Positions 4,254-33,999 of a stretch of 34,634 nt of DNA are shown piece after piece. A program made the position numbers and the translations under genes. The stretch's first letter is position 1, and the number at the start of each line of letters is the position of its first letter. This stretch comes from a virus. The notes beneath the pieces were generated by a model. That model did not search any database. It was not told the DNA's origin and worked only from the letters and a program-made list of their open reading frames with translations. The stretch is taken from the IMG/VR virus record IMGVR_UViG_3300025644_000010; one strand, written 5' to 3'.

Positions 4254-5120
4254 TTATTTGAAAAGTGCTTTCGAAATTTCGACAGGTAAATTATCACAAG
4301 TGAATCCAGCAGCTTTCTTGTGTCCACCTCCACCGAATTTATAACAAATTTTAGAAACATCAATATCATCTTTCATAGTATACATACTAACTTTCCAAGA
4401 TTTTCCATTCCAACAGAAAGGTATCATTATATCTACATTGTTAACTTCAGGGTGATCTTCAAAGAACAAACTTGATATATGAGATCTATTTACTGCTAAT
4501 ACATTATAAGTATGAAGTTTTTCATTTAATTCTACACATAATTCAGTAATAAAACCAATACTATTAATTTCATGTTTATAAGTTTTTGTTACATATTTAT
4601 ATATTGTTTCACCTTTTGTAATAATTTCTTTTGTTAGATTGTTTTCAAAGACATCTTTCCAGAAAATTTGATTTTCGGGCTCACAATCATATTGTCTGAT
4701 ACCGTATTGCATACAAAGTACACTTTGAGTGAGATTCCAAATATCATAATCACCAATCAGTCTAATTGATATTGGTGGATTATTGTCTTTCATAAAGAAG
4801 ATCCATGTTAAAACACAAGCAGCAGTACCATCTACTCTTAAACCATCAAATTCAATATCTTTAAGTTCATTAATTTTTGAAATATGATGATCAATCCAAA
4901 TGAATTGTTTAGATTCTTTTTTTAATCGAATCATATCATCTTTAGGAAAACTAAAATCTGTCATAATTACAACAGTATCTTTATTGATTAAAGACCAATC
5001 AATTTTATATCCATAATCACATGGAATTAATTTAGCATCAGGGAATACGTTTTTAACTATTGCTCCAGAACATTTACCATCTAAATCCGCTCCATGATAG
5101 AAGCATATTACTTTTTTCAA
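4254..5120 (-). CDS. DHH/DHHA1 family phosphoesterase
   Basis: Motifs HGADLDG, MTDFS, IDHH and C-terminal GGGGHKKAAGF. Confidence 0.9.
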   Translation of the reverse strand: MKKVICFYHGADLDGKCSGAIVKNVFPDAKLIPCDYGYKIDWSLINKDTVVIMTDFSFPKDDMIRLKKESKQFIWIDHHISKINELKDIEFDGLRVDGTAACVLTWIFFMKDNNPPISIRLIGDYDIWNLTQSVLCMQYGIRQYDCEPENQIFWKDVFENNLTKEIITKGETIYKYVTKTYKHEINSIGFITELCVELNEKLHTYNVLAVNRSHISSLFFEDHPEVNNVDIMIPFCWNGKSWKVSMYTMKDDIDVSKICYKFGGGGHKKAAGFTCDNLPVEISKALFK

Positions 5121-8411: not shown

Positions 8412-8456
8412 ATCATTCTCCTTTTAAATTTTAAAAAAATAATCTAGATATTATTA

Positions 8457-8516
8457 TATTATTTCTATATAAAAAAAGAGAAAATATAATTTATCCGGGA
8501 TCTCTCCCGGATAAAT
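8457..8516 (-). promoter_or_regulatory. Hairpin + conserved promoter-like cassette, copy 1
   Basis: 12-bp perfect stem at 8489-8516, followed on the minus strand by TTTTCT-N8-ATATAGAAATAATA. Confidence 0.75.
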
Positions 8517-9596: not shown

Positions 9597-9673
9597 TGGT
9601 GGACCCTGGAGAATTCGAATCTCCGACCTTGATATTATGAGTATCCTGCTCTAACCAACTGAGCTAAGGGTCC
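9597..9673 (-). tRNA. trnI: tRNA-Ile2 (anticodon CAU, probably lysidine-modified; Met cannot be excluded)
   Basis: Cloverleaf: acceptor GGACCCU/AGGGUCC, D-arm GCUC-AGUUGGUUA-GAGC, loop CU-CAU-AA, T-loop UUCGAAU, A73, encoded CCA. G1-C72 is paired, so not fMet. C4-G69/C5-G68 and overall sequence resemble bacterial Ile2. Confidence 0.9.
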
Positions 9674-11553: not shown

Positions 11554-11669
11554 AAACTTGCTTAGGTGTGTTATTACACCAAAGGCAACTGTCTTCTTTC
11601 ATACAGTTTAATTTAACGCCACTCCTTAGAGGATGCCTACTTTTAGGGCCACCTTCCTAAGCAAGTTTT
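11554..11669 (-). ncRNA. Candidate 116-nt structured RNA or inverted-repeat element
   Basis: Perfect 13-bp terminal pairing aaacttgcttagg/cctaagcaagttt, internal hairpins, 41% GC (47/116), intergenic. Confidence 0.45.
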
Positions 11670-12244: not shown

Positions 12245-12585
12245 TTTGTTTCTCCTTTAATCAATTTACCAAAATTATATTCAAAAACAACATTATCTGG
12301 TATAGGTTGTTGATTAAACATTGAACTCATTTCTCTAGCGCTATATCCATTGAAACTAGTCTTGTCTGGGTTTAATCCAGAATAAGCAATTAAAAAATTA
12401 AACTCAGAATTCTTTGAACATTCTCCATAAAGTTTGTTAATGTTAGAAATTATTTGTACTTTCGAAAGACTCCTTTTGGCTCCAGGTTTAGTAACTGTTG
12501 GTAAAGCATAACTCCATCCAGAATATCCTTTCTGGAGACCTTCACCAATACCTTTCTTGAACGTTTTAAAATAATAGATATACTT
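12241..12585 (-). pseudogene. 5'-truncated phage protein resembling the A1S_2505 family, no in-frame start codon
   Basis: Translated by hand: ...FKKGIGEGLQKGYSGWSYALPTVTK...KLYGECSKNSEFNFLIAY...SFNGYSAREMSSMF...IPDNVVF; its TGA overlaps the SLT ATG; no ATG/GTG/TTG upstream of the conserved core. Confidence 0.55.
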
Positions 12586-12649
12586 TATTATTTCTATATA
12601 AAAATAGAGAAAATAAAATTACTCCAGCTACATAATTGTAACTGGAGTA
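12586..12649 (-). promoter_or_regulatory. Hairpin + conserved promoter-like cassette, copy 2
   Basis: 13-bp stem at 12620-12649 with a G-U pair that works only on the minus strand, then TTTTCT-N8-ATATAGAAATAATA. Confidence 0.75.
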
Positions 12650-13559: not shown

Positions 13560-15485
13560 CTATACACTCAAAATTTTACAGTGACTATTGATTTCATTTA
13601 AAAATCTACTTCTTTTCCCACTAAAACTACAAGTTCTTTTCTCAACCGTTGTCATATTTAATATTTCTTTACTGCGTGTTGTCGCAACATAGAATAATCT
13701 TCTTTCTTCTTCAAGATGTTTTGTTGTTTTTAATTCACAATCAGACTTTAATGATTTCCAGTGAGGGAATAATCCATCTTCTAATCCAATAATAAACACT
13801 ATTTTAAACTCTAAACCTTTTGCCGAATGAACTGTCATTAGTTTGACTTTTTCAACATTATTGTTTTGATCTTCTGATGTCATTAATGAACTTTCATTTA
13901 TAAAATCTGATATAGTTTGAAATTTACTAGCAAATTTAAGTAATTCATTAATATTTTCTTTACGATCTACATAATCTTCATCATCTACAGACATTGATCT
14001 TAATTCATCATCAAAATTAATTTCTTTTAAAATTAGATTTATACTATCTGATGGATTGTTATCAATTATACTTAATATGATTTTATAATATTTAGATATG
14101 TTTTGATAAATTCGAGAATTGATTTTTGTACTATATGTAAAGTTTTTAATTTTTCGTATAACATTATCACCAGTTTGATTTAAAATTTTTTGTATTGTAC
14201 CTTTTCCAATACCACGTTTAGGAACATTGATTGATCTAGCAAAAGCTTCTGTATCATTAATGTTAAATGCAAATTTAATATAAGCCATTATATCTTTAAT
14301 TTCTCGTCTTTCAAAGAAAGCAACTGATCCTATAATGGTATAAGGTATTCCTAAATTCGTTAATGCTTTTTCGATTGCTCTAGATATAAATTTAGCTCGA
14401 TATAGTATAGCGATATCATCAAATGTACATTTAATTTGATCAACATAATATAAGCAAATTTTTGCAATATTATCGGCTTCAAGTTCATCATTTTTAAATT
14501 TAATTATAATAGGTTTAATATCTGATATAATATTAGAATAACAAACTTTTGGAATTTGATTTGTGTTTTTCTTAATAATATCATTAGACATGTTAACTAT
14601 ATTAGTTGAAGATCTATAATTTTCTTCTAATTTAAATAATTTAGAGTCTTCGATTTTATCTTTAGCATCTATAAAAAATTCTGGTTTAGCGCCGCGCCAT
14701 CCAAAAATAGATTGGAAATCATCCCCAACTATGGTTAGATTTTTACAACAATCAGTTAAATTTATAATAATTTGGTATTGAGTGTTATTAATATCTTGAA
14801 ATTCATCAACTAGAATATATTGAAAATAGTTTTTATATTCATTTTTAAATTCTTCATCAGTAATTAATAAATGAAGTGTATAAAATAAGATGTCATCATA
14901 ATCAATAGCGTTATTTCTTTTTAAAACATAACGATATTGATTAAATATATCAATTAATATTTCACGATCATGTTGAAAGATTGGTAAAAGTTCTTGTTGT
15001 ATGATTTCGTATTTTTTAAGTCTTACTTTATTTATATATTCATGAGGATCTGTATTATCTTTAGCGTCTGAAATTAATTTAGATAAAGGCATTGTAAACT
15101 TTTTAGCATTTAATTTATGACCTATTAAAATTTCTCTAATTATTTTTCTTTGTTCGGAAGCAGAATAAATAGAAACATTTTCTAAATAATTTATTTTATG
15201 TACATATGGTTTTAACATTTGAAGACAAGCGGAATGTATAGTACGAACCCATTTAATATCCCACCAGTTAACATTACTAAATTTAATAATTCTTTCTTTA
15301 AGTTCTGTAGCTGCTTTATTTGTAAAAGTAAAACATAATATTCTTTCTGGATTATAGCCTTTATTTACAAGATACATAAACTTATTTATTAGTGTAAATG
15401 TTTTACCACTTCCCGCACCGGCAGATATTATGCAAGGACCATCTAAATATTCAATTGCATTTTTTTGTGTTAAAGAAGGTTCCAT
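13560..15485 (-). CDS. uvrD: UvrD/PcrA/Rep superfamily 1 DNA helicase
   Basis: AGAGSGKT, VDEFQD, VGDDFQSIFGWRGA, LEENYRS, MTVHSAKGLEF and EEERRLFYVATTR. Confidence 0.95.
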   Translation of the reverse strand: MEPSLTQKNAIEYLDGPCIISAGAGSGKTFTLINKFMYLVNKGYNPERILCFTFTNKAATELKERIIKFSNVNWWDIKWVRTIHSACLQMLKPYVHKINYLENVSIYSASEQRKIIREILIGHKLNAKKFTMPLSKLISDAKDNTDPHEYINKVRLKKYEIIQQELLPIFQHDREILIDIFNQYRYVLKRNNAIDYDDILFYTLHLLITDEEFKNEYKNYFQYILVDEFQDINNTQYQIIINLTDCCKNLTIVGDDFQSIFGWRGAKPEFFIDAKDKIEDSKLFKLEENYRSSTNIVNMSNDIIKKNTNQIPKVCYSNIISDIKPIIIKFKNDELEADNIAKICLYYVDQIKCTFDDIAILYRAKFISRAIEKALTNLGIPYTIIGSVAFFERREIKDIMAYIKFAFNINDTEAFARSINVPKRGIGKGTIQKILNQTGDNVIRKIKNFTYSTKINSRIYQNISKYYKIILSIIDNNPSDSINLILKEINFDDELRSMSVDDEDYVDRKENINELLKFASKFQTISDFINESSLMTSEDQNNNVEKVKLMTVHSAKGLEFKIVFIIGLEDGLFPHWKSLKSDCELKTTKHLEEERRLFYVATTRSKEILNMTTVEKRTCSFSGKRSRFLNEINSHCKILSV

Positions 15486-15494
15486 TTTAATTCC

Positions 15495-16067
15495 TTATTG
15501 CGTTTCATAACTAGATCTAAGTTCATCTTCTTCTTTAAGTTTTTGTAAAGCGCGATTTTTTATTTGTTGTATTCGTTGTCTGCTACATTCATAATCCCTA
15601 CTAATTTCATTAAGTGTACACTTATCTTCATCATTTAATCCAAATCGTCGATTAATAACATCTTGTTCTACTTTTGTTAAACGTGAGACAACATCATTCA
15701 CTAATTTACAATTTTCTTCTAATACAATTTGATCGTATGGTGTCTTTTGTGATGAAGTAATTTGTTTTATCTCTTCAAAATCTGCTTCAACTTCTGCTTT
15801 ATTAATTTCTAAAGGATTTATTAAATGTTGTGGTGGAAACAGATCTTCTGGTAAAACTTTTAAAGTCTTAGATATTTTTAATACATCTTTTTTAAAAGTA
15901 CCATCTAGATTATAAGCTGGTTTTTTTAAATTTAAAAAATAACTTATTGGTGTTTGACCAACATTTGATGCTTTTGAAAGACTTGCACCACTATAAAATC
16001 CAGCTTTCTCCATTGCTTTTAACATATAATTATTTTTGATTTTTACTGTAATTCTATAATCTTTCAT
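15495..16067 (-). CDS. XRE/Cro-like HTH fused to a sigma-70 region 4 domain
   Basis: C-terminal LTKVEQDVINRRFGL...TLNEISRDYECSRQRIQQIKNRALQKL is typical sigma region 4; N-terminal SLSKASNVGQTPISYFLN is HTH-like; no region 2. Confidence 0.75.
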   Translation of the reverse strand: MKDYRITVKIKNNYMLKAMEKAGFYSGASLSKASNVGQTPISYFLNLKKPAYNLDGTFKKDVLKISKTLKVLPEDLFPPQHLINPLEINKAEVEADFEEIKQITSSQKTPYDQIVLEENCKLVNDVVSRLTKVEQDVINRRFGLNDEDKCTLNEISRDYECSRQRIQQIKNRALQKLKEEDELRSSYETQ

Positions 16068-16096
16068 AATTTAATTTCACTAATTATTTTGTACAT
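16064..16096 (-). CDS. 10-aa leader minigene (MYKIISEIKL)
   Basis: AGGAG 11 nt upstream of the ATG; its TGA overlaps the ATG of 15495..16067. Confidence 0.35.
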   Translation of the reverse strand: MYKIISEIKL

Positions 16097-16117
16097 TTAA
16101 TCTGTGTCTCCTGTTAA

Positions 16118-16155
16118 AAATTACTGGTGACTTGGTATATGCTCACCAGTAATTT
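16118..16155 (-). terminator. Intrinsic terminator-like hairpin downstream of the 230-nt element
   Basis: Perfect 13-bp stem aaattactggtga/tcaccagtaattt with a 12-nt loop and T-rich base. Confidence 0.65.
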
Positions 16156-16160
16156 ATAAA

Positions 16161-16390
16161 TCTTGGTAGGCGGGACGTTACTCCCACTAGTGGTATTTTT
16201 CTGCTTGATAGCCTCAACAGAGCTCTCACCCCTTAGCTACTGGTGCTTAACCATTCACGCTGTATGTGTGCCTTGCGTGGTCCTGGTGCAGAAGGTCTCT
16301 AACCGAAGTGGACTAAACTCTAGCTCAACCACCATCACCGGTGCTGTAACCTAATGGCATGTCTACGATTTCATCATGCTACTACCAAGA
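16161..16390 (-). ncRNA. Candidate 230-nt structured non-coding RNA of unknown family
   Basis: 49% GC (113/230) in an AT-rich genome; 9-bp closing stem tcttggtag/ctaccaaga; several hairpins with G-U pairs on the minus strand; own downstream hairpin; no credible minus-strand ORF. Confidence 0.65.
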
Positions 16391-16395
16391 AAATT

Positions 16396-17730
16396 CTAAA
16401 GATATTCATCAATAATTTTACATGAGAATTCATCTGAAATTACTTTACGCTTCATTCTTATTTCTGGAACAGTAAAACCAGGTACAGAAAGATCGGCAAG
16501 ATCTATTACAACTGGATTTAATTTGTTTAAATCTCTACGTAAAATTCGACCTACAACTTGTATCAATGACTTTTTTCCAGCTAAAGGACAAGCTAAAATT
16601 AAACAGCTTAATTCTTTGTAATCAAAGCCCTTCCCAGCATAAGAATATGTCGCCACAAGCACTTTTTCTTTGTAAGTAATTTCACGTTGATCTCCATAGA
16701 ACATTGTATTTTCTATTCCACGCTCAGTTAACAATTCAGATATTGTAGTTACTTGAATTTTTGTGAAACACAAGATCATAATTCTATGACCTTCAGTTAC
16801 CATCTTACGTGCTTGATTAACAATTATATTTAGATAATTAGGGCTACTAACAATAACTTTATTATAGAACGATTTCTTTCTAAGATAATCATTCATTTGA
16901 TTCATTACATATATTTTCTTATTATCTAATTCACTCTTGTAATTGATCAAGCGGTATTCAGGTTTAGTATCATAATTTTTTGAATCTGAAATTATTTCAC
17001 CAACTGAATTTTTCATCAGTATTTCTGCAAATCCAGTTTGAAATGGTGTAGCTGATAGTCCAACTATATTTTTTGTTCTAAACAATAACGACACCTTTGA
17101 GAAAACCGGAGCTGAACTAGTAGCATGAACTTCATCATAAATTACTAGACCTATTTTAGCTTTATCAATTATTTTAAAATTTTCTTGTATATTTGATTTC
17201 ACTTTTCGAAGTAAAGTCTGAGCCATACCAATAATAATATCTTTGTCTACTCCAAAAGCTTTCTTTTGAATTATACCAATATCTTTAGTACTAAAATTTG
17301 TGAAGTCGAGTATGGCTTGGATCCATTGTTTCATAAGATTTTGATTATCTACAATAATCAATGTTTTAATTTTAAGTTGGGCTGCTAAATATATAGCCAT
17401 AACTGTTTTGCCAATTCCAGGTCTTGCTTTGACAATTCCATTCAGACAATCATTAGCGTTATATGATTTAGCTAAAATATTTATTATACTTACTTGTTCA
17501 TCTCTCAATTTACCTGTGAATTCAATATTTTTAATCTCTGCTGGTTGAAATTGATCTTGATTACCACTAAATATTTGTAAATGCTTATTAGGATAATTTT
17601 TTGCAAAAAGTCTTGGTAAGAAATAAGCATCATCAGTCTCTAGTAATATAAGTTCTTCTGCAAAGTCTCCTAACATCTGGTATTGATTTATAAAATCATC
17701 ATAAGATTCTTTCTTAATAAATGTCCACAC
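16396..17730 (-). CDS. Superfamily 2 helicase (UvsW/ResIII-like)
   Basis: RPGIGKT, YDEVH, SATP, ATYSYAGKGFD and QVVGRILR; GTG start is uncertain. Confidence 0.85.
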   Translation of the reverse strand: MWTFIKKESYDDFINQYQMLGDFAEELILLETDDAYFLPRLFAKNYPNKHLQIFSGNQDQFQPAEIKNIEFTGKLRDEQVSIINILAKSYNANDCLNGIVKARPGIGKTVMAIYLAAQLKIKTLIIVDNQNLMKQWIQAILDFTNFSTKDIGIIQKKAFGVDKDIIIGMAQTLLRKVKSNIQENFKIIDKAKIGLVIYDEVHATSSAPVFSKVSLLFRTKNIVGLSATPFQTGFAEILMKNSVGEIISDSKNYDTKPEYRLINYKSELDNKKIYVMNQMNDYLRKKSFYNKVIVSSPNYLNIIVNQARKMVTEGHRIMILCFTKIQVTTISELLTERGIENTMFYGDQREITYKEKVLVATYSYAGKGFDYKELSCLILACPLAGKKSLIQVVGRILRRDLNKLNPVVIDLADLSVPGFTVPEIRMKRKVISDEFSCKIIDEYL

Positions 17731-17732
17731 AG

Positions 17733-19295
17733 CTAAATACTCACTAGTTGTTTTAGAAGTTGATTACACTTCTTGGACACATTTATCTTCTCCCAATCAG
17801 TTAACTGACACGAGTCGGATATATTATCTGTTATCATATTACATTCACTCCAGTCTTCATTCTTAATCAAAACCGGAAACATATACGGTTTAATTAAATA
17901 TTTTTTATTACCGGCAAGATCTGTGTAGATCATTAATAATTGATTGTTTTCAAGTTTCTTTATATCTAATAGTAATAAGTCTTTATCATCTTTAACCGTC
18001 ATACTTTTATCTATGATGGTTGATGATTTCTTACCGTCTGGTTTGGTATACTTATTAGCATTAGCATTACTAACATCTGGATTAGGATTAATATACTTTA
18101 TAATATTTTTCACACTCTTTTCATAAATCGCTTTATTCTTACTATTGTGTGAAATTGAACTAGGGCTTATTAATGGTATCACTGTGACATTATTCTCTAG
18201 AGAAAATACTTTTCCAGAAGCGGCAGTAATTTTATTTTTAATACCAAATGTTGATTTAACCTCATCACCAATTGGTACATATAGCTTTGTTGGAAAGGTT
18301 GAAAAGATTTTAGAAGTTATATTTAGACACTTGGTAATAATATCACCAGTGATTTCATTCTTATTTGAAGATTCACAAGGAATAATATTGAAGAGTGTCC
18401 ATGTTATACTTCTAGGTAACTGGTTAATTATATTTCGAACACTTAAATCTCCAATAAATGGTAATCCCTTTTCAATATCTGCTTTTCCAGGATTCAAACC
18501 AACGAAACATACATCGACTTCACCTGGTTCTTTTAGATTACTATCTAATATAACTGTTGGTTTTGCATATAAAGAACATGTTTTACATAAATCACTACTT
18601 GCTTTTGCTTCTTTGATGTTACTAATAAAACTATTTATTTCTGGACCAAATTCTTTTTTGTCTGACGTTCCTAATGTTTTTAACTGGTTTTCATCCAGCT
18701 CTTGCGGTGGTTTTACAACATCGTTATAGTTAATAAAGTCAAAGGATTTAATAGATGGTTTGTCTCCATTAAGCAACCTATCTATTTCTAAAAGATCTTC
18801 GTCCTTAATAACACCCATTTTAAATAATTTATAGTATATATTCAGGTCAAGCCTATTACATTCAATGTTGTGGACAGTTAAGAGGTAATCATGTATGAGT
18901 TTCTTTATGGTGAACTTAATGTCGTCTTTTAATGTAGCTGATTTAATATACATGTACATCTTACTATTACAACGGTTATTGATCTCCATTATATACACTA
19001 AAGATTTAATTAAAAGTCTGGTATCGTAACTATCAAATTTATAGAGATCATTCATATATGTATTAAAATACTTTATTATATAGGGAAATCCATAATTGTA
19101 ACTTAATATTCTTTTAGCAACAGTATTTTTAATATCATATTTTTCAATTAACCCAACCAATTGTTCTTCATTACGATTAGAGTTATTGATCCATTTAGTG
19201 ATTGACTTGAGTGATTCTAAGAAATTTATATTTTTCTTCTTTTTCTTCTTAACATTCTGAGTTTTCTTTCTAGATTTAGCTTTAGCCATAATCAA
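17733..19295 (-). CDS. Multidomain protein with a family-4 UDG-like [4Fe-4S] domain (SPO1 polymerase-associated type)
   Basis: CKTC...VGLNPG...GLPFIG...NIIPC-x16-C...PLISPS; long N- and C-terminal extensions. Confidence 0.65.
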   Translation of the reverse strand: MIMAKAKSRKKTQNVKKKKKKNINFLESLKSITKWINNSNRNEEQLVGLIEKYDIKNTVAKRILSYNYGFPYIIKYFNTYMNDLYKFDSYDTRLLIKSLVYIMEINNRCNSKMYMYIKSATLKDDIKFTIKKLIHDYLLTVHNIECNRLDLNIYYKLFKMGVIKDEDLLEIDRLLNGDKPSIKSFDFINYNDVVKPPQELDENQLKTLGTSDKKEFGPEINSFISNIKEAKASSDLCKTCSLYAKPTVILDSNLKEPGEVDVCFVGLNPGKADIEKGLPFIGDLSVRNIINQLPRSITWTLFNIIPCESSNKNEITGDIITKCLNITSKIFSTFPTKLYVPIGDEVKSTFGIKNKITAASGKVFSLENNVTVIPLISPSSISHNSKNKAIYEKSVKNIIKYINPNPDVSNANANKYTKPDGKKSSTIIDKSMTVKDDKDLLLLDIKKLENNQLLMIYTDLAGNKKYLIKPYMFPVLIKNEDWSECNMITDNISDSCQLTDWEKINVSKKCNQLLKQLVSI

Positions 19296-20298: not shown

Positions 20299-20841
20299 TT
20301 AACTACCAAGACCATTCAGGATATTACCAACGATATCATTGATTGACGCCTTCACAACTGATGCTCGTCCAGCACCGCCACCGGGACGAGTATCTTCGGG
20401 ACGAGATAGATGTTCAGTGATATAAGCATCAACAGTTGCTAAACTAGCAGCATCATCACCACATGCTTCTCTCAACTGTTTTTTTGTTTCCATCAGTACA
20501 CGATTCACCTGATGTTTTGTAATACCACGAGCTTCGGCAATTTCCGTATATGACATATTCTTGACATTTGCCACAACAAATTCCGTATCTTCCGGAGTCA
20601 TCTGACGGTTTGGTTTCTTTCGTGCTTTCTTCACTTCAACCGGAGCAGCAGGTACAGCATCAACTACGGGAGCTGCAACAGGAGCGGCCACTGGGGCTGC
20701 AACGGGAGCTGCTTCAACTGCGGGAGCGGCTGGGGCTGCAACGGGAGCTGCAACAGGAGCTGCTTCTGCGGGGGCTGCGGGGGCTGCTTCGACTACGGGC
20801 TTAATTTTGGGCATAAATGAGGGTCTGGTTGCCATTGCCAT
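20299..20841 (-). CDS. Ala/Pro-rich linker plus HTH protein, probably highly expressed
   Basis: AAPV/AAPA repeats over residues ~19-68; MSYTEIAEARGITKHQVNRVL is HTH-like; GC-rich codons; AAGGAG RBS; own terminator. Confidence 0.7.
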   Translation of the reverse strand: MAMATRPSFMPKIKPVVEAAPAAPAEAAPVAAPVAAPAAPAVEAAPVAAPVAAPVAAPVVDAVPAAPVEVKKARKKPNRQMTPEDTEFVVANVKNMSYTEIAEARGITKHQVNRVLMETKKQLREACGDDAASLATVDAYITEHLSRPEDTRPGGGAGRASVVKASINDIVGNILNGLGS

Positions 20842-20867
20842 AATTTAAATCTCCTTTAAAAATCTCT

Positions 20868-22616
20868 TTACATTAAATTTTTTAGACTTAGGTCTGTTAA
20901 CATTAATTGCTTTCTTGTTTCGGTACTATTAACGACAGTATTAACAATATCCATCGTATCTGGGTACTTGATTACATATTCTCTACCTTTTCTTATGACA
21001 ATCTCTAGTTGGTCTGGATTCATTTCTCCAAGACCTTTAAACCTTTTGATTTCATAATTCTGGGCCCGATACTTTTCGGTTTCCTCTATCTCATATAATG
21101 GTACAAAAGTTTTTCCTTTAACCGCACCGTATAGTGGCGGTAGGAGTATACTTACACGATCTTCTTTTATCATATCACTAGCAAACTTACTCATAAAGAG
21201 GGTTGCTAATAGATTAATATGAAGACCGTCCGAGTCTGCGTCACTCAGTAGCTTTACTTTCTTATACCTGCGCCTCCCTTCTGGGCCTAATGCCTCCAAT
21301 AATTGTTTAATCTCTTGATTTTGACCAATTTTGATTGCTGAACCTTTTTCCACATTCATCATCTTTCCTTTAAGTGGAAAAGAAGCTTCTGTGGATTTGT
21401 TCCGAATAACCTTAAGAGTACCATCAGCAGAATCACCTTCGACGATATATAATATGTCTCCTGGTGATTTACTACAATCTCTTAATTTATTCTTGTTTGA
21501 TATTCTCTTACTACTAGCTCTAGATATAATTTTTTTGGTTATTTTAGTTTCTAATAAATCTGTAAGAGTATTCATAATATCAGAGCTGGTAAGAATTTTA
21601 GTTAATCTTTTTTCAATAGTTTTAAGATATGGTTTAATATTTGTTTTCATTCGTGATTTAACTTGAGCATCAAATTTTGGTTTCTCTAAAGTAAGATTAA
21701 TATAACATCGAAGACCAGTTAGAAATTCTTTATTATTAAGACTTCTAAATCTGCGATCGATATTATTCGCAATGATATCTTTAATCATTGTACTAGTGTT
21801 TGTAATATATGTACCATCACTAGTGCGTAGATTAACATCACCTACAATTATACTATCTTTGGCATTGATATACGTTAAGTATATTCTTAATTTTTCAACA
21901 CCAAATACTTCTTCGATTGAATACATTTGAGTGTCATCATTTATAGACAATACATTTCGAACATATTCATATAAAGTGATCTTTGGAATCTCTGTTTCAT
22001 TTACAAAGAATTGTGCATGATCATGTACTGATTGAGATAAAAGTAATCGACTAACGACTTGTTCTACATCAAATGTAACACTGTCGAAATACTTTAGATC
22101 CGGTTTAAATCCAACTTGAGTTGAAAACGTTTCACCAGCATAATCAGTTATATTGTGTTCTGATGGGACTGAATCAATGAAGATATATTCATGTATTTTA
22201 TTATCTTTCTTAATTCGAACAACTAACCATTCAGAAAATGCATTAACGGCTACTAAGCCGACACCATGCATACCAATCTGAATTTTATAATCTACTATAT
22301 TTTTTTGTCGAAATTTAGATCCAGAGAATAGTTTGGTACACAATAATTCAATACTATCTTTCATCTCTTTTGTATCTGGATCTTGTGTGATACCAATTTT
22401 TAATCCTCTACCATTATCAGTAACCCAGAACTCATTTGATTCGTCAATAAAAACTTCACCGATTGTAGCAAATTTATTAACAACTTCATCTAGCATATTA
22501 TCAATTACTTCAACAGCTAAATGATCAGGAGTTTCTGTATCACCAATAAACATTCCTGGGTTTGTTCGAACCGCAGTAATGCTATCGAGGGCAACATAAT
22601 CTTGTTGTTTTACCAT
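20868..22616 (-). CDS. gyrB: Type IIA topoisomerase B subunit (GyrB/ParE-like)
   Basis: EVIDNMLDE, DNGRG, GMHGVG, VEGDSA, PLKGK, DADSDG and RFKGLGEM; start refined to MVKQQ after GGAG. Confidence 0.92.
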   Translation of the reverse strand: MVKQQDYVALDSITAVRTNPGMFIGDTETPDHLAVEVIDNMLDEVVNKFATIGEVFIDESNEFWVTDNGRGLKIGITQDPDTKEMKDSIELLCTKLFSGSKFRQKNIVDYKIQIGMHGVGLVAVNAFSEWLVVRIKKDNKIHEYIFIDSVPSEHNITDYAGETFSTQVGFKPDLKYFDSVTFDVEQVVSRLLLSQSVHDHAQFFVNETEIPKITLYEYVRNVLSINDDTQMYSIEEVFGVEKLRIYLTYINAKDSIIVGDVNLRTSDGTYITNTSTMIKDIIANNIDRRFRSLNNKEFLTGLRCYINLTLEKPKFDAQVKSRMKTNIKPYLKTIEKRLTKILTSSDIMNTLTDLLETKITKKIISRASSKRISNKNKLRDCSKSPGDILYIVEGDSADGTLKVIRNKSTEASFPLKGKMMNVEKGSAIKIGQNQEIKQLLEALGPEGRRRYKKVKLLSDADSDGLHINLLATLFMSKFASDMIKEDRVSILLPPLYGAVKGKTFVPLYEIEETEKYRAQNYEIKRFKGLGEMNPDQLEIVIRKGREYVIKYPDTMDIVNTVVNSTETRKQLMLTDLSLKNLM

Positions 22617-22698
22617 TTTTACTCCTACACATATACTAAAAACATAATAAGAACAAAAATTACCCACAAAAAGTTAAAGTTACTATTGTAACTATACA

Positions 22699-22757
22699 TA
22701 TTATTTCTATATTAAAATCGAGAATATAAAATTTTAGTGCAAACTCTTTGCGAAAAT
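22699..22757 (-). promoter_or_regulatory. Conserved promoter-like cassette, copy 3 (weak hairpin)
   Basis: TATTCT-N8-ATATAGAAATAATA; upstream stem is only gcaaa/tttgc plus an AT base. Confidence 0.7.
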
Positions 22758-29004: not shown

Positions 29005-29056
29005 TTAAATCAAACCTCCTATCTATTTATTTTTATTTAAAAATAATGATTATTTA

Positions 29057-29116
29057 TATTATTTCTATATAAAAACAGAGAAAATATAAATTACCCGACT
29101 GCCGAAGCAGCCGGGT
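29057..29116 (-). promoter_or_regulatory. Hairpin + conserved promoter-like cassette, copy 4
   Basis: 10-bp stem with C(UUCG)G loop at 29093-29116, then TTTTCT-N8-ATATAGAAATAATA. Confidence 0.8.
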
Positions 29117-29128
29117 CTTTGTGATGAT

Positions 29129-29341
29129 TTATTCGTAATCATGAATATTTTTTCTTGAAAACACAAAATCTTCAAAAGCACCATTTGGACTTTCTGGACT
29201 ATCTGGATTGTCTTCACTTGGATCTTGATTTCTAGCAAAAGATGCCATAAGATCCTTTTCAGGAGTTAGAGATAAATTAATTACAAAATCCCCAATTCTA
29301 ATTTCGCTTTCTTCATTTTCTTCAATGTCTAATTCTTTCAT
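29129..29341 (-). CDS. Small acidic protein
   Basis: 19 of 70 residues are D/E; its ATG overlaps the radical SAM TGA. Confidence 0.6.
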   Translation of the reverse strand: MKELDIEENEESEIRIGDFVINLSLTPEKDLMASFARNQDPSEDNPDSPESPNGAFEDFVFSRKNIHDYE

Positions 29342-30081
29342 TGGGCCTCCTCTAATGATTTATGAATCATATACTTTTTACCATAATGATTCAATTTTTT
29401 CTCAACCTTCTCTTTGACTTCTTTCCAGTTTATTGTTTTTTGGTGTTTGTTATAATTCAATTTACCAACACCATAAAAATCTGTGAATTCATGAGTATTA
29501 TCGATAACATCTAATGCTTCTTGAAGATCAATAATTGGCTCTAAACTTAACCAAGTTTTAATGTTTCTTTTTTTGGCTCTTCTTAGATTTTCAATCCTTT
29601 GTTTGGGGGAAGCTGCAAATGGTTCCCATTCTTTTTGTAAATCTTCATTTAACATAACTAAAGTAATACCGAATTCGTTTTCTTGAACTTGAGACAAAAG
29701 ATCAAAATCTCTTTGAGCTAAATCTTCTCCTTTTGTAAGTATTCGAACAGGAAAATCAAACGAATTTAATAATTTAATTGATGTTCGTGTTAGTTTTAGT
29801 TCTTCCTCTAGTGGTTGATAAGGATCACTAGTGAATGACATAAGAACTTGAGATTTTTCGAATTCATCATTCTTTTCAATCAATTCTAAGTCTCTTATTA
29901 ATCTCGTAATAATATCCTTTTTTGGTTTAATTGTTCCGTTAAAATTTTCTCTAGTGATTTTACAAACACCAGGGACAAAGCAGTACTTACAACCATGATT
30001 ACAACCTATATAAAGATTGAGCGCAAGATCTGCATATTCTTTAGCAGAACCTTTTGGTTCATATATCACTCTATTTGGCAT
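29338..30081 (-). CDS. Radical SAM protein (SplB/COG1533-like)
   Basis: CNHGCKYC (CxxxCxxC), SDPYQP, ILTKG, WEP and SLEP. Confidence 0.85.
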   Translation of the reverse strand: MPNRVIYEPKGSAKEYADLALNLYIGCNHGCKYCFVPGVCKITRENFNGTIKPKKDIITRLIRDLELIEKNDEFEKSQVLMSFTSDPYQPLEEELKLTRTSIKLLNSFDFPVRILTKGEDLAQRDFDLLSQVQENEFGITLVMLNEDLQKEWEPFAASPKQRIENLRRAKKRNIKTWLSLEPIIDLQEALDVIDNTHEFTDFYGVGKLNYNKHQKTINWKEVKEKVEKKLNHYGKKYMIHKSLEEAQ

Positions 30082-33886: not shown

Positions 33887-33934
33887 ACTTTCTCCTTTAA
33901 TTTAAAAATAAATTTAAGCAAATTACTATTATCT

Positions 33935-33999
33935 TATTATTTCTATATTAAAACAAAGAAAATATAAATTATCCCTAGCTACCGAAGTAGCTAAGGATA
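33935..33999 (-). promoter_or_regulatory. Hairpin + conserved promoter-like cassette, copy 5
   Basis: 13-bp stem with C(UUCG)G loop at 33970-33999, then TTTTCT-N8-ATATAGAAATAATA. Confidence 0.8.

Follow-up and report, generated by a model that had tools for sequence, protein, structure and literature searches.

A terminator-ended RNA of about 280 nt from the replication region of a marine phage, with a head-to-tail joint that points to a circular or tandem form

The stretch of DNA analysed here (34,634 nt, called the window below) carries the replication genes of a large phage, and every long gene in it lies on the minus strand. The products identified are a UvrD helicase, a sigma-70 region 4 protein, an SNF2/ResIII helicase, a UDG-domain protein, SSB, topoisomerase II, an RFC-like ATPase (adjoined by an HNH endonuclease), a split family B polymerase and thymidylate synthase; a DHH/DHHA1 phosphoesterase (4254-5120, minus strand; phrog_4771, E 4e-42) and a radical SAM protein (29338-30081, minus strand) are encoded as well. 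The only tRNA that ARAGORN located in the window is tRNA-Met at 9597-9673. The phage was recovered at 99-100% identity on marine or seawater contigs, the longest of them 78 kb. Its SLT-type lysin, together with the sigma protein named above, indicates a bacterial host. It is an uncultured, widespread, marine phage.

The element of interest lies between a helicase gene (16396-17730, minus strand, 444 aa at full length) and the sigma gene (15495-16067, minus strand; Pfam Sigma70_r4 match, E 2e-10). An earlier note on this DNA had proposed a multibranched RNA of about 230 nt at this place. We find that the full RNA is about 280 nt long (279-281) and runs on the minus strand from about 16394 to 16115. 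Its strand was assigned from the presence of a terminator and a promoter-like site, together with the fold energies. The features of the locus are as follows.

16115..16394, minus strand: the RNA; 5' end at 16393-16395 and 3' end at 16114-16116, junction letters ambiguous by 1-2 nt
16161..16390, minus strand: GC-rich structured core, closed by a 9-bp stem (16382-16390 with 16161-16169)
16357..16379, minus strand: hairpin GCAUG...CAUGC, directly 3' of the closing-stem strand; pair probability 0.89
16256..16279, minus strand: hairpin CACGC...GCGUG, apical in both candidate interior folds; pair probability 0.87
16170..16187, minus strand: 3' hairpin GUGGGA-loop-UCCCGC, with no spacer to the closing stem; pair probability 0.99
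16116..16155, minus strand: intrinsic terminator, a 13-bp stem plus 12-nt loop (together 16118-16155) followed by the remaining U-tract (U5), at the RNA 3' end; pair probability 0.96
16402..16428, minus strand: promoter-like site (TTCTC, 16-nt spacer, GAATAT) within the last helicase codons
16207..16234, minus strand: polymorphic patch holding all four differences between the population haplotypes
16064..16112, minus strand: strong AGGAGA ribosome-binding site (RBS) and a mini-ORF of 10 codons, whose stop overlaps the sigma start (ATGA)

Five nucleotides separate the helicase stop codon (16398-16396) from the structured core, and the GC content of the core is 49.1%, both as stated earlier, while the window as a whole has 29% GC. 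The GC island at the element reaches 47-54%, and a 100-nt stretch of more than 50% GC is found in the window only here and in one coding Ala/Pro repeat. The latter island (20550-20870, up to 71% GC) lies within a gene at 20299-20841 on the minus strand, encoding a 180-aa protein with an Ala/Pro/Val-rich repeat N-terminus (AAPV-type) and a C-terminal HTH-like region. Related loci have islands of 60-69% GC some 2-2.6 kb upstream of their own helicase gene. Another intergenic element of the window, at 11554-11669 on the minus strand, has a closing stem of 13 bp.

All the structural features which the note had listed are indeed there: the closing stem, the three hairpins, the C(UUCG)G loop, a possible UGGUGGU/ACCACUA pairing and three copies of GCACCRG (RNA core positions 47, 102 and 145). 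The suggestion that the repeated GCACCRG might be a protein-binding site did not survive, as three copies of a 7-mer are at chance level (p about 0.36), and the same is true of a 14-nt direct repeat (p about 0.12); a binding array was thus dropped, the repeats being no commoner than chance. The proposed likeness to a tRNA T-arm extends to the stacking geometry only, and the loop of the 3' hairpin, GUAACG, is no T-loop. The RNA does have a terminator of its own, but the boundaries of 16390 and 16161 proved too narrow, since RNA contig ends place the terminator hairpin within the RNA.

The 3' end of the RNA sits at the expected intrinsic termination point, where RNA contigs end or join exactly past the U-tract of the terminator (16114-16116). 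A consensus terminator scan missed this terminator because of its 12-nt loop. At the other end, the putative promoter has its -10-like box (GAATAT) upstream of the RNA, with the last base of the box 6-8 nt from the 5' end. Sites of the form TTCTC-N16-DAATAW occur 7 times in the window (0.67 expected), and four of these are conserved promoter cassettes, while the copy at the element is without the conserved spacer of the cassettes. We infer from this sequence match that the TTCTC-N16-GAATAT site acts as a promoter; alternatively, the 5' end may arise when the helicase message is cut at a site resembling those of RNase E. In terms of a bacterial-type small-RNA gene, the locus therefore offers a terminator, a discrete RNA (in four runs) and a promoter that is a sequence match at the right distance. 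The cassettes themselves, of the form TTCT(C/T)-N16-TAATA(T/A) with the spacer ATATAGAAA, are strongly over-represented (8456-8482, 12585-12611, 22698-22724, 29056-29082 and 33934-33960, minus strand), and a sigma-like protein encoded by the phage itself may recognise them. Downstream of the RNA, 48 nt separate its 3' end from the sigma start, and the overlap between the mini-ORF stop and the sigma start suggests, as far as such an arrangement can be read, translational coupling or a leader peptide.

In a word index, the element was found in 20 runs of 17 studies, and six of these are RNA runs, i.e. metatranscriptomes holding 32-64% of the element's sampled words. Contigs from four of the six (X15-X18) were placed on positions 14800-18200. 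The element was covered by an RNA contig in all four of these seawater metatranscriptome runs; in X17 the contig spans 16160-16377. The clearest picture came from X16, where the element contig has a depth of 593 and the adjacent helicase-gene and flanking contigs have depths of 3-8 (contig depth being a crude measure of expression, and contigs revealing neither the strand nor the true ends nor how many of the molecules are circular). The same run also contains the helicase and UDG genes of the phage, on contigs of 151-595 nt with 0-7 differences, and pieces of 524-595 nt among these demonstrate that the phage is present. Such a gap in depth cannot be explained by DNA carry-over. The sigma gene and positions 16395-16453 have no RNA contig in the four runs, but such holes prove nothing. 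Matches of 31 nt at 15303-15333, seen in all four runs, turned out to be parts of long contigs from other organisms. We conclude that the element very probably gives rise to a discrete, abundant, terminator-ended phage RNA. The earlier proposal of an undescribed phage ncRNA with its own terminator is supported, as no family matches it and a discrete RNA ends at the promoter-like site and the terminator; it accumulates as a species of its own, though with about 280 nt instead of about 230.

Folding favours the minus strand, as had been supposed (-70.1 kcal/mol versus -64.6 kcal/mol for the plus strand). Taken by itself, the 230-nt core has an ordinary fold energy (z -1.5), and the full 280-nt RNA stands out more (z -2.6; common haplotype, z -3.6). 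Helices that can be regarded as secure are the 9-bp closing stem (pairing probability 0.98), three hairpins and the 13-bp terminator stem, with pair probabilities of 0.87-0.99 overall. The interior of the fold is ambiguous: two predicted architectures lie within 1-3 kcal/mol of each other, and the variant A16234G alone flips the minimum-energy fold to the architecture with the long-range GGUGGU/ACCACU pairing.

The element is 99% identical in all contigs of the phage from many samples. The haplotypes differ at four positions, all within the 28-nt patch at 16207-16234, and the adjacent sigma and UvrD genes (2.5 kb) show zero differences across eight contigs. Through two of these changes, one predicted helix gains Watson-Crick pairs in place of a U-G wobble and an A/C mismatch, which weakly favours that helix. 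The patch may be a local hypervariable or recombined segment. RNA contigs break exactly at 16207-16234. From these breaks it follows that both haplotypes co-occur in the samples, and each contig would represent a whole circle minus the variant bubble.

Contigs of X15, X16 and X18 contain a head-to-tail joint, in which 16393/4 is followed by 16114/5. On the minus strand, the U-tract of the terminator, with one or two A behind it, thereby meets the 5' end, 1-3 nt past the helicase stop. The three runs stem from three studies, of 2016 (single reads) and 2025 (paired reads). Permuted contigs which join the 5' end to the terminator end, as known for the small RNA DucS, were thus found in three RNA runs. 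The joint was also assembled at contig depths of just 5 and 9, and so joined molecules were not rare in those samples. Both ends have the microhomology AAAATT in common, but the joint avoids it and keeps the full U-tract, which argues against slipped duplication and against template switching driven by microhomology; a full U-tract is also as expected for the end-to-end joining of full-length molecules. Joints of 279, 280 and 281 nt were seen, and X18 has one letter too many. On one hand, this spread fits ragged transcript ends; on the other hand, it also fits template jumping by reverse transcriptase. Taken together, the joint points to a circular or tandem form of the RNA, and we consider a real circle and an artefact to be about evenly balanced.

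It counts against a circle that a primary transcript bears a 5' triphosphate and would have to be processed prior to ligation. Genes for RNA ligase, RtcB or polynucleotide kinase were not found in about 46 kb of the phage genome, which is incomplete, and this says little. An endless reading frame on the circle, of the kind known as Neo, was dropped since there are stops in every frame. On neither strand does the circularised sequence contain the core motifs of hammerhead or twister ribozymes, and Rfam detects no self-cleaving ribozyme on the linear DNA.

The view that the element belongs to no known RNA family was upheld: Rfam 15, whose families include tmRNA, RNase P, 6S, SRP, Y RNA/YrlA, C4, riboswitches, IMES and ribozymes, had no family that reached its gathering score anywhere in the window, and at E<10 only chance snoRNA and miRNA matches of 12-19 bits. 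ARAGORN found neither tRNA nor tmRNA at the element. A 6S RNA was rejected, as there is no 6S match and the predicted folds are multibranched and not a long rod. The longest complementarity to the rest of the window, as might mark an antisense target, is 11 nt, which is at chance level.

Relatives were sought by way of the helicase, whose family is large: 84 related loci from IMG/VR and JGI metagenomes were gathered together with the closest helicase and sigma relatives, about 90 in total. The collection of homologues that had been envisaged came back empty, as neither blastn nor nhmmer detected anything in these loci. A covariance model built from the three haplotypes and 28 secure pairs found nothing when run on 0.49 Mb of loci plus three whole virus records. 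A BLAST search of whole virus records with the element returned one 19-nt chance match only, exact-pattern scans of IMG/VR gave 0 matches, and blastn against 50,697 phage records gave no match. A two-motif pattern run on 185,579 species genomes matched 15 times (about 4 expected), mostly in Prevotella genes or coding repeats, with nothing shared beyond the motif. The closest relative, 85% identical in the helicase, has the same helicase-sigma order with a gap of 85 nt, versus 328 nt in the window, and sigma homologues of 55-61% identity have no long leader. In the absence of any copy in relatives or collections, the element appears to be a lineage-specific acquisition.

What such an RNA does, and how its joint came about, may be read in several ways. 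It might be an ordinary linear small RNA, or one derived from a 3'-UTR, and the joint might then be made while the library is prepared, either because reverse transcriptase jumps between templates or because an abundant RNA whose ends lie close together is ligated. We regard this as rather unlikely, although part of the evidence does lean that way: the joint is variable in length, the extra letter of X18 could be a non-templated C in the cDNA, which is typical of template switching, and G-A/A-U-U at the 5' end (slash at the cut) fits the cleavage preference of RNase E, so that processing from the helicase message is possible. These points have to be set against the occurrence of the joint in libraries of differing type and year, at depths of 5-9 that are too low for a rare artefact, and against its avoidance of the microhomology at hand; moreover, native ends would not be joined by protocols based on fragmentation. 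As to function, the main rival is that the RNA is a leader which acts in cis on the sigma operon, similar to a riboswitch or an attenuator, an idea we hold to be unlikely and slightly more so. Here the stem-closed domain would sense a signal and set termination, the abundant RNA would be the terminated leader, and the joint would be a by-product or an artefact. Terminated riboswitch leaders are abundant small RNAs in marine metatranscriptomes, and the order of parts is suitable (promoter, stem-closed multi-helix domain, 5 nt, terminator, RBS, mini-ORF, sigma gene). In a consensus scan, the 48 nt before the sigma gene have only two weak (9/12) promoter-like sites, both downstream of the mini-ORF RBS, and as these 48 nt offer no better promoter, sigma expression may depend on read-through. 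In addition, the third GCACCAGUA copy can pair over 8-9 bp with the 5' arm of the terminator, and the 5' strand of the closing stem can pair with UACCAAG of the terminator loop. Yet the pairing with the terminator arm, which would be the candidate antiterminator, has a probability of about 9% in the nascent-RNA ensemble, and a strong antiterminator was dropped for this reason. Riboswitch, T-box and leader families are without a match, a conserved aptamer upstream of homologous genes was not found, the element is absent both from relatives with the same gene order and from sigma homologues, and a leader leaves the head-to-tail joint unexplained.

Two further possibilities concern the DNA itself. 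A mobile or foreign insertion, similar to a MITE, could have landed between the helicase stop and a pre-existing terminator and be transcribed incidentally and without function. The element is indeed missing from the closest relative (85-nt gap versus 328 nt), its GC content is foreign to the genome, and a 9-bp inverted repeat lies exactly at the ends of the 230-nt core. Nevertheless, we find this improbable, given a single copy in about 46 kb of the phage, no copy in IMG/VR or (by the two-motif pattern) in 185,579 species genomes, no clear target-site duplication in view, and a sequence nearly invariant across many samples, with variation limited to one helix. Membership among MITEs was rejected likewise: the 9-bp inverted repeat is there, but the copy is single. 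It is most improbable of all that the stretch works as a signal in the DNA, such as a replication origin or packaging site, or encodes a small protein on the plus strand, although it sits among replication genes and a 63-codon ORF with a TTG start does exist at 16163-16354. A discrete RNA ending at the terminator U-tract favours an RNA gene, the ORF, with its TTG start, is antisense to all neighbour genes and does not span the whole RNA, and no iterons above chance were seen that would mark an origin.

The explanation which we consider the best, and which we put forward tentatively as falling just short of an even chance, is that of a separate gene for a stable, highly structured ncRNA of about 280 nt, whose ends are often joined and which acts in trans. 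Transcription would start 1-3 nt past the helicase stop, from the phage-type promoter-like site in the 3' end of the helicase gene, and would stop at the intrinsic terminator, as the contig ends and joints at the U-tract indirectly indicate. To judge from contig depths, the RNA would then build up to levels well beyond those of the neighbouring message. A sizeable share of the molecules would be closed covalently, 5' end to 3' end. By means of the 9-bp closing stem and the terminator hairpin, the two ends may be kept close to each other, so that an RNA ligase of the host or the phage could join them within one molecule, and ring closure would shield the RNA from exonucleases. In the infected cell, the RNA would most likely act in trans as a protein-binding decoy or a scaffold. 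We favour a stable RNA acting in trans over a cis leader because no relative ties the element to a sigma gene and because the RNA accumulates alone.

Should this be the case, a bacterial DNA phage would circularise an ordinary primary transcript from its start to its terminator end, and a class of circular stable RNAs may have gone unrecognised in phages, active while the host is infected, for instance as exonuclease-proof decoys for host RNA-binding or defence proteins. We regard this wider idea as possible, albeit doubtful. To our knowledge, few phage ncRNAs have been described, and almost none from uncultured marine phages; the orphan RNA described here may greatly exceed every other transcript of its own region in abundance. 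We also know of only one bacterial end-joined circular RNA so far, a small RNA of Bacillus. A real ring would extend such RNAs to phages, and would raise the questions of which ligase closes them and what they bind.

Several known systems invite comparison. Group I introns are known to yield circular RNA, and those of related phages resemble the element in being of similar size (245-304 nt), in forming GC-richer structured islands, and in occurring in the same gene neighbourhood and clade. Unlike them, the element follows a stop codon and does not lie in an exon, and its 3' end is a terminator. A group I intron was rejected, as there is neither a U at the 5' site nor a terminal G (the boundaries being G/A upstream and U/A at the end) and the conserved core is absent; Intron_gpI gives no match at the element even at E<10, while an intron of a relative scores 78.5 bits. 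The helicase genes of many related phages carry such introns, without ORFs and 245-304 nt long, between codons 107/108 (Walker A, G-K/T), and there is a second site near codon 369. Examples are L036:267-526 (the copy with 78.5 bits on Rfam Intron_gpI), L042:2223-2486, L050:2343-2648 and L013:4104-4359; others are found in L043, L044, L046-48, L054 and L067, and insertions of about 1 kb in L008, L040/41 and L053. In these introns the 5' exon ends with U and the intron with G. The helicase gene of the window is intron-free. The GC-rich islands of related loci were considered as analogous RNAs, and those examined were group I introns or coding sequence.

Marine metatranscriptomes are known to contain terminated riboswitch or leader RNAs, and also abundant orphan small RNAs such as the IMES motifs. 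Like these, the element forms a GC-rich stem-closed domain with an intrinsic terminator, lies upstream of a gene and is abundant in seawater RNA; in contrast to them, it has no Rfam match (IMES included), is not conserved upstream of homologous genes, and shows weak alternative pairing of the terminator.

Closer parallels are found among RNAs whose ends are joined. Archaeal C/D box sRNAs are circularised by the ATP-dependent RNA ligase Rnl, and a terminal stem is required for the ligation (PMC9014305). By analogy, the 9-bp closing stem and the terminator hairpin of the phage RNA could bring its ends together, but here the host is bacterial, box D is missing and no ligase gene was found nearby; a C/D box RNA was itself rejected, as the element holds one box-C-like heptamer and no box D. 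In Bacillus altitudinis, the small RNA DucS (about 200 nt) exists in linear and circular conformations, and in permuted reads the last nucleotide of its terminator is linked to the transcription start, the 5' position varying somewhat (PMC10504365). DucS is chromosomal, its circles were validated by RNase R, northern blots and junction RT-PCR, and it is neither a group I/II intron nor self-splicing, with the ligation mechanism being unknown (PMC10504365). The phage RNA differs from DucS in being phage-encoded and larger and in having no similarity to it in sequence or structure, and its joint is known from assembled metatranscriptome contigs alone. What it has in common with DucS is that both are terminator-ended small RNAs of the bacterial type, for which permuted sequences link the 5' end to the terminator end.
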